NCBI GenBank assembly: GCA_038851075.1 | Contig: JAWCLG010000005.1 | Coordinates: forward strand, 2,308 to 66,307 | DNA from: Candidatus Hadarchaeales archaeon | GTDB lineage: Archaea; Hadarchaeota; Hadarchaeia; Hadarchaeales; Hadarchaeaceae | Direction of reading: 5' to 3' | DNA length: 64,000 bases | Notes under the pieces: model-generated | Seen by the model: only the letters and a program-made list of their open reading frames with translations | Database searches by the model: none | What the model was told of the DNA's origin: nothing | In this document: positions 23,669 through 23,774 of the stretch, one piece after another | Numbering within the stretch: position 1 is the first letter of the stretch | How the letters are laid out: each line of letters begins with the position of its first letter | Translations under genes and position numbers: made by a program

Positions 23669-23774
23669 TGGCGGGCCCGGCGGGATTCGAACCCGCGATG
23701 TGCAGCTTTCCTCCAGGGATAGAAGGCTTGCGGGCTTTTCGCTTGCCGCCTTATCCTGGCTAGGCCACGGGCCC
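23669..23774 (-). tRNA. tRNA-Arg(TCT) with two introns (29/30, 16 nt; 37/38, 12 nt), CCA encoded
   Basis: Removing 23728-23743 and 23708-23719 gives a 78-nt cloverleaf: GGGCCCG/CGGGCCC acceptor, GCCT/AGGC D-stem, GCAGC-CT-TCT-AA-GCTGC anticodon arm, GCGGG-TTCGAAT-CCCGC T-arm, G followed by CCA. Both introns form bulge-helix-bulge motifs. Confidence 0.93.

Follow-up and report, generated by a model that had tools for sequence, protein, structure and literature searches.

The stretch of DNA analysed here, 64,000 nucleotides of contig JAWCLG010000005.1 from a Candidatus Hadarchaeales archaeon (hereafter the window), carries on its minus strand a tRNA-Arg(UCU) gene interrupted by two inserts, which we call intron A and intron B. 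The window belongs to a metagenome-assembled genome (MAG) of the order Hadarchaeales, an assembly of 29 contigs that totals 1.0 Mb at 52% GC and is 88% complete (G000), and its DNA was found in hot-spring metagenomes. The locus comprises the following features, in window coordinates:

23669-23774, minus strand: tRNA-Arg(UCU) gene, 106 nt including the encoded 3' CCA (23669-23671), with a predicted mature product of 78 nt; called from the sequence, ARAGORN -i, our own solver and the relative L038
23744-23774, minus strand: exon 1, tRNA positions 1-29 (acceptor 5' strand, D-arm, G26 and G27-A29), from the parse, in agreement with L038
23746-23749, minus strand: 5' strand of the central helix of intron A, exon bases G24 C25 G26 G27, of which G24 and C25 belong to the D-stem in the mature tRNA
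23728-23743, minus strand: intron A, 16 nt, AGCGAAAAGCCCGCAA, at site 29/30; missing from L038, present in 24 orthologues with differing hairpins
23720-23727, minus strand: exon 2, positions 30-37 (G30 C31 C32 U33 U34 C35 U36 A37), from the parse and the solver
23721-23723, minus strand: anticodon UCU, inside exon 2
23708-23719, minus strand: intron B, 12 nt, UCCCUGGAGGAA, at the canonical site 37/38; missing from L029, L033, L036, L037 and L038
23669-23707, minus strand: exon 3, positions 38-76 (A38, anticodon-stem 3' strand, variable loop, T-arm, acceptor 3' strand, G73 and CCA), from which L038 differs by one variable-loop base
23797-23806, minus strand: TATA-box-like element TTATTAAATC, 23-32 nt upstream of the mature 5' end

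Read on the minus strand, the gene parses as GGGCCCG UG GCCU AGCCAGGAUA AGGC G GCA / AGCGAAAAGCCCGCAA / GC CUUCUA / UCCCUGGAGGAA / A GCUGC, followed by ACAUC GCGGG UUCGAAU CCCGC CGGGCCC G CCA, where slashes mark the exon-intron junctions. Our solver, which uses no prior information, enumerates the segments that fit the endonuclease rule (two 3-nt bulges separated by 4 bp, with a cut behind the second base of either bulge), requires an intact T-arm and retains the combination with the best cloverleaf score. It returned exactly inserts A and B and the anticodon TCT. With both inserts cut out, the acceptor, D, anticodon and T stems are perfect, the anticodon loop reads CUUCUAA and the T-loop UUCGAAU. 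The boundaries are also fixed independently, because L038, a relative from another genus of the same family, carries the same UCU gene with neither insert (...GGCGGCA/GCCUUCUA/AGCUGC...). Its junctions are the exons of the window gene joined exactly at the proposed sites, and it scores 68.6 bits as an Rfam tRNA. With the boundaries set by L038, the chance of finding a 4-bp helix in the exact splice register is about (6/16)^4, or about 2% per intron.

An earlier note, made from the letters alone, had proposed a tRNA-Arg(UCU) with introns at 29/30 and 37/38. The parse, the solver and L038 all bear this out, and the positions it gave for the gene and for each intron proved exact. It had also looked to sequencing reads for support of both inserts; DNA contigs of hot-spring metagenomes do carry the gene with both (100/100 nt identical in X1), although these contigs possibly derive from the window assembly's own sample and are not independent support. 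As an A flanks both junctions of intron A, a 1-nt shift (GGC/AAGCG...GCA/AGCC) would move the intron to 28/29 and leave the mature sequence identical. This placement is very improbable: only 29/30 sets both cuts after the second base of 3-nt bulges lying exactly 4 bp apart, and both the endonuclease rule and the solver choose it.

Intron A forms a nearly complete bulge-helix-bulge (BHB) motif. Its 5' bulge is C28 A29^A, its central 4-bp helix pairs G24-G27 with CCGC and its 3' bulge is A A^G30 (^ marks the cut). The intron itself supplies an A as third base of the 5' bulge, a GC-GAAAA-GC hairpin (h'), the CCGC strand of the helix and an AA that gives the first two bases of the 3' bulge. Every detail that had been described for this anatomy (bulges CA^A and AA^G, helix GCGG/CCGC from bases 24-27, hairpin GC-GAAAA-GC) matches the sequence. 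The junction follows the BHB rule, with two 3-nt bulges, a 4-bp helix and cuts after the second bulge base. The full hBHBh' architecture, in which both bulges are closed by a helix on each side and h' has at least 2 bp, is incomplete in its outer helix h, which is marginal: G23-C31 and A21-U33 are present in 25/25 genes, but A22 faces C32 as a mismatch in 23/25. The inner h' spans 2-5 bp across orthologues and 2 bp in the window gene.

Conservation supports the motif. In an alignment of orthologues (A1), the central helix G24-G27/CCGY is paired in 24/24 sequences, three of which have a G-U at one pair. Pairing in the inner hairpin amounts to 98.5%; 2 of its pairs show changes on both sides (9 cells), and the hairpin occurs as GC/GC, GUG/CAC, GUU/AAC, GUC/GAC, GCA/UGC, GCGAG/CUCGC and GUCC/GGAC. 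The covariation score of intron A was reached by 0/500 shuffles, and sliding the partners by 1-3 columns lowered pairing to 23-51%, versus 90% in register. Two alternative foldings were rejected. A different intra-intron hairpin (GCG/CGC in the window gene, GUGG/CCGC in some relatives) fails in the GUU/AAC, GUC/GAC and GCA/UGC variants, where h' holds, and a long helix AAGGC/GCCUU (with GGAUA/UAUCC) taken from the minimum free energy fold loses its extension in relatives with an intron B starting with ACU, GCU or CGA.

The central helix of intron A uses G24, C25, G26 and G27, which confirms the proposal that this fold borrows D-stem and hinge bases and needs refolding. Since G24 and C25 pair in the D-stem, the BHB fold of intron A and the cloverleaf are mutually exclusive, and the former requires a fold without the D-stem and without the top of the anticodon stem.

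Intron B is of the relaxed hBH, or bulge-helix-loop, type. It lies at the canonical 37/38 site, and its predicted CUUC/GAGG helix was confirmed: GAGG pairs with C32-C35, one G-U pair included, and AA together with A38 makes up the 3' bulge (A A^A38). The 5' cut site, U36 A37^U, sits in an 8-nt hairpin loop, and in a loop of 8-10 nt in all 17 copies, because introns of 12-14 nt leave no room for an inner helix. Only the helix and the 3' bulge of the strict hBHBh' architecture are thus present, with no h'. The central helix is paired at C32-C35 in 17/17 genes and varies by one-sided G-U/A-U changes (GAGG, GGAG, GAAG, GGGG). The genome's tRNA-Arg(UCG) (G000 C4:20324-20411, plus strand), which has another body and no 29/30 intron, contains a 37/38 intron, UCCUCGGGAGGAA, nearly alike to intron B (UCCCUGGAGGAA); this likeness may be forced by pairing to the common CUUC loop half or may reflect a common origin.

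The two motifs meet at G30 and C31. G30 lies in the 3' bulge of intron A and C31 forms the only solid outer pair of that motif, G23-C31, while the motif of intron B needs G30-C40 and C31-G39 as the helix closing its 3' bulge. Both motifs use these bases and therefore cannot be complete together, as had been foreseen, which favours stepwise removal from different folds. The two introns are thus most likely removed one after the other. According to the tRNAscan-SE 2.0 paper, stepwise removal is known for closely spaced archaeal tRNA introns (PMC8450103), and an ordered splicing of A and B would be plausible.

A stricter version of this idea holds that the order is obligatory and set by RNA folding, with one intron leaving first: either B, or A, which would restore the anticodon stem of B. 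We regard it as a serious possibility, if slightly less than probable. The competition for G30/C31 means that the motifs are never both complete, and both central helices have a probability of about 0 in the full precursor at 37 C, rising to about 0.1-0.16 once the other intron has been removed. There are also precedents, namely closely spaced introns of which one must leave before the second BHB forms (PMC8450103) and the M. kandleri pre-tRNA-Glu, from which the canonical intron left first in vitro (PMC5829648). However, orthologues with intron A only would process A without B ever having been there, the central helix of intron B is compatible with the BHB of intron A at similar energy, energies are indecisive at 60-75 C, and the order may be kinetic rather than strict. 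The energies of the intron A BHB fold and of a cloverleaf-like fold lie within a few kcal/mol of each other, their rank flips between 37 and 75 C, and unconstrained RNAfold runs on the precursor and on both singly spliced intermediates did not return the BHB folds. Folding thermodynamics neither back nor refute the motifs or any particular order.

The organism appears to depend on this gene. AGA (29%) and AGG (45%) together make up 74% of the Arg codons in open reading frames (ORFs) of at least 300 aa. The Arg tRNA genes found by our own census and ARAGORN are Arg(CCG), Arg(GCG), Arg(UCG) and the UCU gene described here, with neither a second UCU gene nor any CCU gene in the 88%-complete assembly; it is the only AGA/AGG decoder found there. 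Upstream, an (A)TATTAAATC element recurs at the same distance in 13 orthologous genes, intron-bearing or not, and a T-rich stretch follows the CCA. Over 25 orthologues the exons hardly change, whereas the introns vary in their loops and covary in their helices. The gene is real and probably essential.

The prediction that routine tRNA finders may miss such a gene held. ARAGORN in default mode did not see it, nor did Rfam cmscan, either at the gathering threshold or at E <= 10; ARAGORN -i calls a tRNA-Arg tct at these coordinates but models one misplaced intron. The sole window tRNA found by standard tools is an ordinary intron-less tRNA-Thr(GGU) (20080-20158, minus strand, 68.3 bits).

Many of the order's 65 genomes yielded orthologues in a BLAST search with the 106 nt. 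Both inserts occur in 16 further UCU genes (17 with the window gene), insert A only in L029, L033, L036 and L037, and neither insert in L038 only. Intron B was accompanied by A in all 17 genes, and none of the parsed orthologues has B alone. The 29/30 insert is also present in tRNA-Arg(UCG) (L025-L028, L032) and tRNA-Arg(CCU) (L034, L035), whose bodies are nearly identical. The intron A signature GGCGGCAAG-N5-20-CCCGYADGC has 42 occurrences in 29/66 Hadarchaeota genomes from three families, while the reversed pattern has 0. On the simplest reading of these sequences, A would be the older intron and B would have been added in a subset of the UCU genes, with the intron-less gene of genus g5 representing a loss or a copy that never had an intron. 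Because the isoacceptor bodies are so nearly identical, the presence of A in UCU, UCG and CCU genes seems most simply explained by gene duplication and anticodon change, although intron transposition or gene conversion may also be its source.

The suggestion that the intron had been acquired by transfer found no support in this distribution: three families of the order have inherited the 29/30 intron, and the three Arg isoacceptor genes that contain it are almost the same in body. A recent gain of intron A, whether horizontally or through transposition out of a different tRNA gene, is improbable. The intron's patchy occurrence (29/66 genomes, with none in the same-genus relative G001 or in genus g5, whose gene is intron-less) and its recurrence in the UCU, UCG and CCU genes would fit such a gain, and Thermoproteales are known for intron transposition on a large scale (reviewed in PMC4090602). 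However, the intron occupies the same site in three families and its hairpins have diverged by compensatory changes, which points to long vertical descent. Duplication and anticodon change would suffice for the near-identical isoacceptors, no similar sequence exists elsewhere in the window's own genome, and the absences are weak because many of the MAGs are incomplete.

We then turn to the enzymes that would remove the introns. A full-length RtcB ligase gene is present in the assembly (PF01139, 601.9 bits, G000 C8:40403-41710). A second, partial RtcB-like frame (G000 C3:103233-104972, plus strand) runs off the end of contig C3 as two separate matched pieces with in-frame stops (1 TAG, 1 TAA); it may be a broken copy, or a second RtcB whose frame is split by an insert, possibly an intein.

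The splicing endonuclease EndA was traced through relatives; those reached with the EndA protein are named as MAGs of Hadarchaeales, Hadesarchaea, Hadarchaeota and Candidatus Hadarchaeum yellowstonense. EndA is one gene in 20/20 relatives searched, the same genus included, and a single gene in 7/7 relatives that are at least 94% complete (protein search E <= 5; Pfam E <= 10). At these same thresholds, no hidden beta subunit was found in the near-complete relatives. Two EndA copies in G001 were considered as an alpha/beta pair and rejected, as they represent the same trpS-endA locus at 89% identity, that is, a strain duplication. The Hadarchaeales EndA ORFs are 177-182 aa long (about 178) and always adjoin the tryptophanyl-tRNA synthetase gene trpS (for example in L001, L007 and L039). 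The relatives' EndA aligns end to end with the homotetrameric M. jannaschii enzyme (1a79, E 1.1e-40), M. kandleri 5x89 (E 4.7e-44) is the PDB entry that matches the relatives' EndA best, and the catalytic Tyr/His/Lys triad is conserved in Hadarchaeota EndAs. The gene thus has the features of the alpha4 type: a product of about 170-190 aa made of a single N-terminal domain and a single catalytic domain, the triad, and no second EndA-like gene. We infer from this gene content that the EndA of the lineage is of alpha4 type and would act as a homotetramer. The heteromeric or epsilon-type enzyme with which the earlier note associates such introns is not what the relatives carry; they have this single alpha4-type gene of about 178 aa instead.

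The specificity loops of other archaeal enzymes were also compared. The L1 loop, or Crenarchaea-specific loop (CSL), in which about 9 residues, a conserved Lys among them, are inserted after YG.P, is present in A. pernix and Vulcanisaeta and absent from all Hadarchaeota EndAs. In L3, the stretch from the catalytic Tyr to the catalytic His is enlarged into a basic loop (residues 240-247 of ARMAN-2 and 90-98 of N. equitans; PMC3488258). This loop is absent from about 42 Hadarchaeota EndAs, Ca. Hadarchaeum yellowstonense included, in which the Tyr-His spacing is 10, as in M. jannaschii, against 15-16 in ARMAN-2 and Micrarchaeota. The L1/L2 site carries an invariant G-x-[FY]-G-K-P-L-S-G-G that is ASL-long in the HMMER alignment, 1-2 residues longer than M. 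jannaschii, with its Lys offset by one relative to the ARMAN-2 ASL (G158-H165, K161). The idea that the GKPLSGG lysine is a lineage-specific ASL analogue is weakened, as GKP is also found in Thermoplasmatota and Hydrothermarchaeota EndAs.

Taken together, the locus is very probably a functional tRNA-Arg(UCU) gene of a Hadarchaeales archaeon, matured by EndA/RtcB protein-only splicing. Transcription from the conserved TATA-like promoter would give a 106-nt precursor with an encoded CCA, which would then enter the archaeal protein-only splicing pathway: the lineage's single alpha4-type EndA would cut at both motifs and RtcB would join the exons. We infer that splicing takes place from the conserved gene and motifs, and four observations weigh against this account. 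First, EndA is absent from the window's 88%-complete assembly (no match to PF01974 or PF02778 nor by tblastn); we attribute this to an assembly gap, because the neighbouring trpS is also missing and the completeness is 88%. Second, alpha4 and alpha'2 enzymes cut relaxed motifs poorly or never in vitro (PMC5829648, PMC3488258), limits that matter here because the outer helix of intron A is marginal and intron B has no inner helix. Third, nearest-neighbour folding gives the BHB helices a low probability, 0-0.16, in the precursor and in both singly spliced intermediates. Finally, searches for sequencing runs yielded hot-spring DNA runs and one metatranscriptome from the same study, and this only metatranscriptome of the study has zero coverage of the locus.

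The opposite view would be that the locus is a decaying pseudogene, its inserts never removed, and that another tRNA reads AGA/AGG. Standard finders do reject the gene, no spliced RNA was seen, with zero depth at the locus in the sole metatranscriptome, and another copy could be hidden in an assembly that is 88% complete. We nevertheless give this view almost no credence. All four stems are perfect in the spliced product, the exons are near-invariant over 25 orthologues while the intron helices covary, and the promoter element is conserved. Moreover, AGA/AGG account for 74% of Arg codons with no other decoder found, and about half of the genome's tRNA genes are built likewise.

The nature of the endonuclease raises a further question. 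In the published view, only loop-bearing EndAs (CSL/L1, ASL/L2, and the L3 of Nanoarchaea and ARMAN-2) cut relaxed or misplaced introns (PMC5829648, PMC3488258, PMC3241643). We tentatively put forward, while holding it somewhat doubtful, that a plain alpha4 EndA without L1/CSL, L2/ASL or L3 processes dozens of relaxed or misplaced Hadarchaeota tRNA introns. As part of the same tentative proposal, its substrates would include mini-introns with a 5' site in a loop and introns that need unfolding of the D-stem.

The pairing of heavily disrupted tRNA genes with an alpha4-type EndA, confirmed here, is already published in outline for this lineage, which limits the surprise: Kaneta et al. (2018, NAR 46:1958, PMC5829648) described it for Hadesarchaea. 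Their genome, YNP_N21, belongs to the same lineage, Hadarchaeota, and likewise combines a single alpha subunit with many non-canonical and multiple tRNA introns. It is, however, a one-genome pattern given in their Figure 7, without this tRNA-Arg gene, the order-wide conservation of the 29/30 intron or its presence in three Arg isoacceptors. That paper terms the Hadesarchaea enzyme 'L3 harboring', whereas the roughly 42 EndAs compared here have no extra Tyr-His residues relative to M. jannaschii, a contrast drawn with the paper's wording only. The earlier note errs in treating the gene as a rarity that needs a heteromeric or epsilon-type enzyme or transfer.

Other systems share single aspects of this one. 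Thermoproteales (Pyrobaculum, Thermofilum, Caldivirga; Sugahara et al. and Fujishima et al., via PMC4090602 and PMC8450103) also have relaxed motifs and introns so near each other that one has to leave before the next motif can fold, with a density of 0.84 introns per gene (PMC8450103) compared with about 0.6 here, but they belong to another phylum and use a heterotetrameric (alpha-beta)2 EndA with the Crenarchaea-specific loop, as opposed to one alpha-type gene that lacks this loop. The M. kandleri pre-tRNA-Glu(UUC), with a relaxed HBh' intron at 20b/21 and a canonical 37/38 intron (PMC5829648), is likewise a two-intron tRNA from a euryarchaeal-side lineage whose EndA appears to have no specificity loops. 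M. kandleri differs in having separate alpha and beta subunits and one such non-canonical intron described, whereas in the present lineage no beta subunit could be detected and many introns are non-canonical. ARMAN-2 (Ca. Micrarchaeum), which has an epsilon2 EndA (PMC3239211, PMC3488258), resembles the present case in its small genome and its mixture of strict and relaxed BHB introns, with more than half of its tRNA genes interrupted. Its EndA, however, is a three-unit fusion with an ASL loop and an enlarged Tyr-His loop, and the Hadarchaeota EndA appears to have neither insertion.

Within its own genome, the tRNA-Arg(UCU) gene is far from isolated. ARAGORN -i and the solver together suggest inserts in about 19 of about 40 tRNA genes, two each in six of them, which corresponds to about 0.6 introns per gene, and at least ten genes would have inserts outside 37/38. 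The setting is not the odd euryarchaeal-type genome that the earlier note had in mind; it is a Hadarchaeales MAG, about half of whose tRNA genes are intron-bearing. The 37/38 introns are mini-introns of 12-17 nt like intron B, except for the long C/D-box intron of tRNA-Trp. The calls on these other genes are candidates proposed by the solver and include the following (contigs of G000):

C3:50564-50678, minus strand: Tyr(GUA), introns at 35/36 and 37/38
C4:26569-26680, minus strand: Met(CAU), introns at 9/10 and 30/31, missed by ARAGORN
C10:4220-4322, plus strand: Thr(UGU), introns at 30/31 and 37/38
C23:2817-2933, plus strand: Glu(CUC), introns in the D-arm and at 37/38
C6:19964-20077, plus strand: ambiguous gene, introns at 22/23 and 33/34
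Leu(CAA), intron at 30/31
Both Gln genes, D-loop inserts
Gly(GCC), intron at 20b/21

For the ambiguous gene on C6, the BHB solution gives Gly(GCC), while its GGGCCCG acceptor stem and G73 resemble the body of the genome's tRNA-Lys(UUU). ARAGORN misnames several of the two-intron genes, as Pro(agg), Val(aac) and Ser(gga). What it calls tRNA-Gln(ttg) (G000 C3:101477-101580, plus strand) reads as a tRNA-Pro(UGG) with an insert of about 26 nt in the T-arm (CCGAG...UUCAAAUCUCGG), and was missed by the solver because the solver needs an intact T-arm. At G000 C4:26561-26729 (minus strand), GGGCUUG, an imperfect copy of the acceptor 5' strand GGGCCCG, lies 9 nt upstream of tRNA-Met(CAU) and could pair with the 3' acceptor strand. 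The tRNA-Trp(CCA) gene (G000 C2:93120-93248, plus strand) has an intron of about 53 nt with box C/D-like motifs (GGAUGAUG ... CUGA, twice); the intron of euryarchaeal tRNA-Trp is known to guide 2'-O-methylation.

The locus provides a well-documented case of a two-intron tRNA with mutually exclusive splice motifs, and its natural relatives with both introns, one or none form a ready-made series of substrates for studying splicing order. Three quarters of the organism's arginine codons depend, as far as was found, on a gene that standard finders overlook, and without intron-aware tools Hadarchaeota MAGs will look short of essential tRNAs. A tRNA set this rich in introns is at odds with an EndA resembling the strict M. 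jannaschii enzyme, and the lineage is a good one in which to test what sets the substrate range of EndA. If a plain alpha4 enzyme does process these introns, broad specificity would have arisen through point changes in an M. jannaschii-like homotetramer, or a helper (a protein chaperone or an RNA modification) would present the substrates; either way, the rule that ties the co-evolution of EndA and disrupted tRNA genes to a 'specific loop' would have to be revised.

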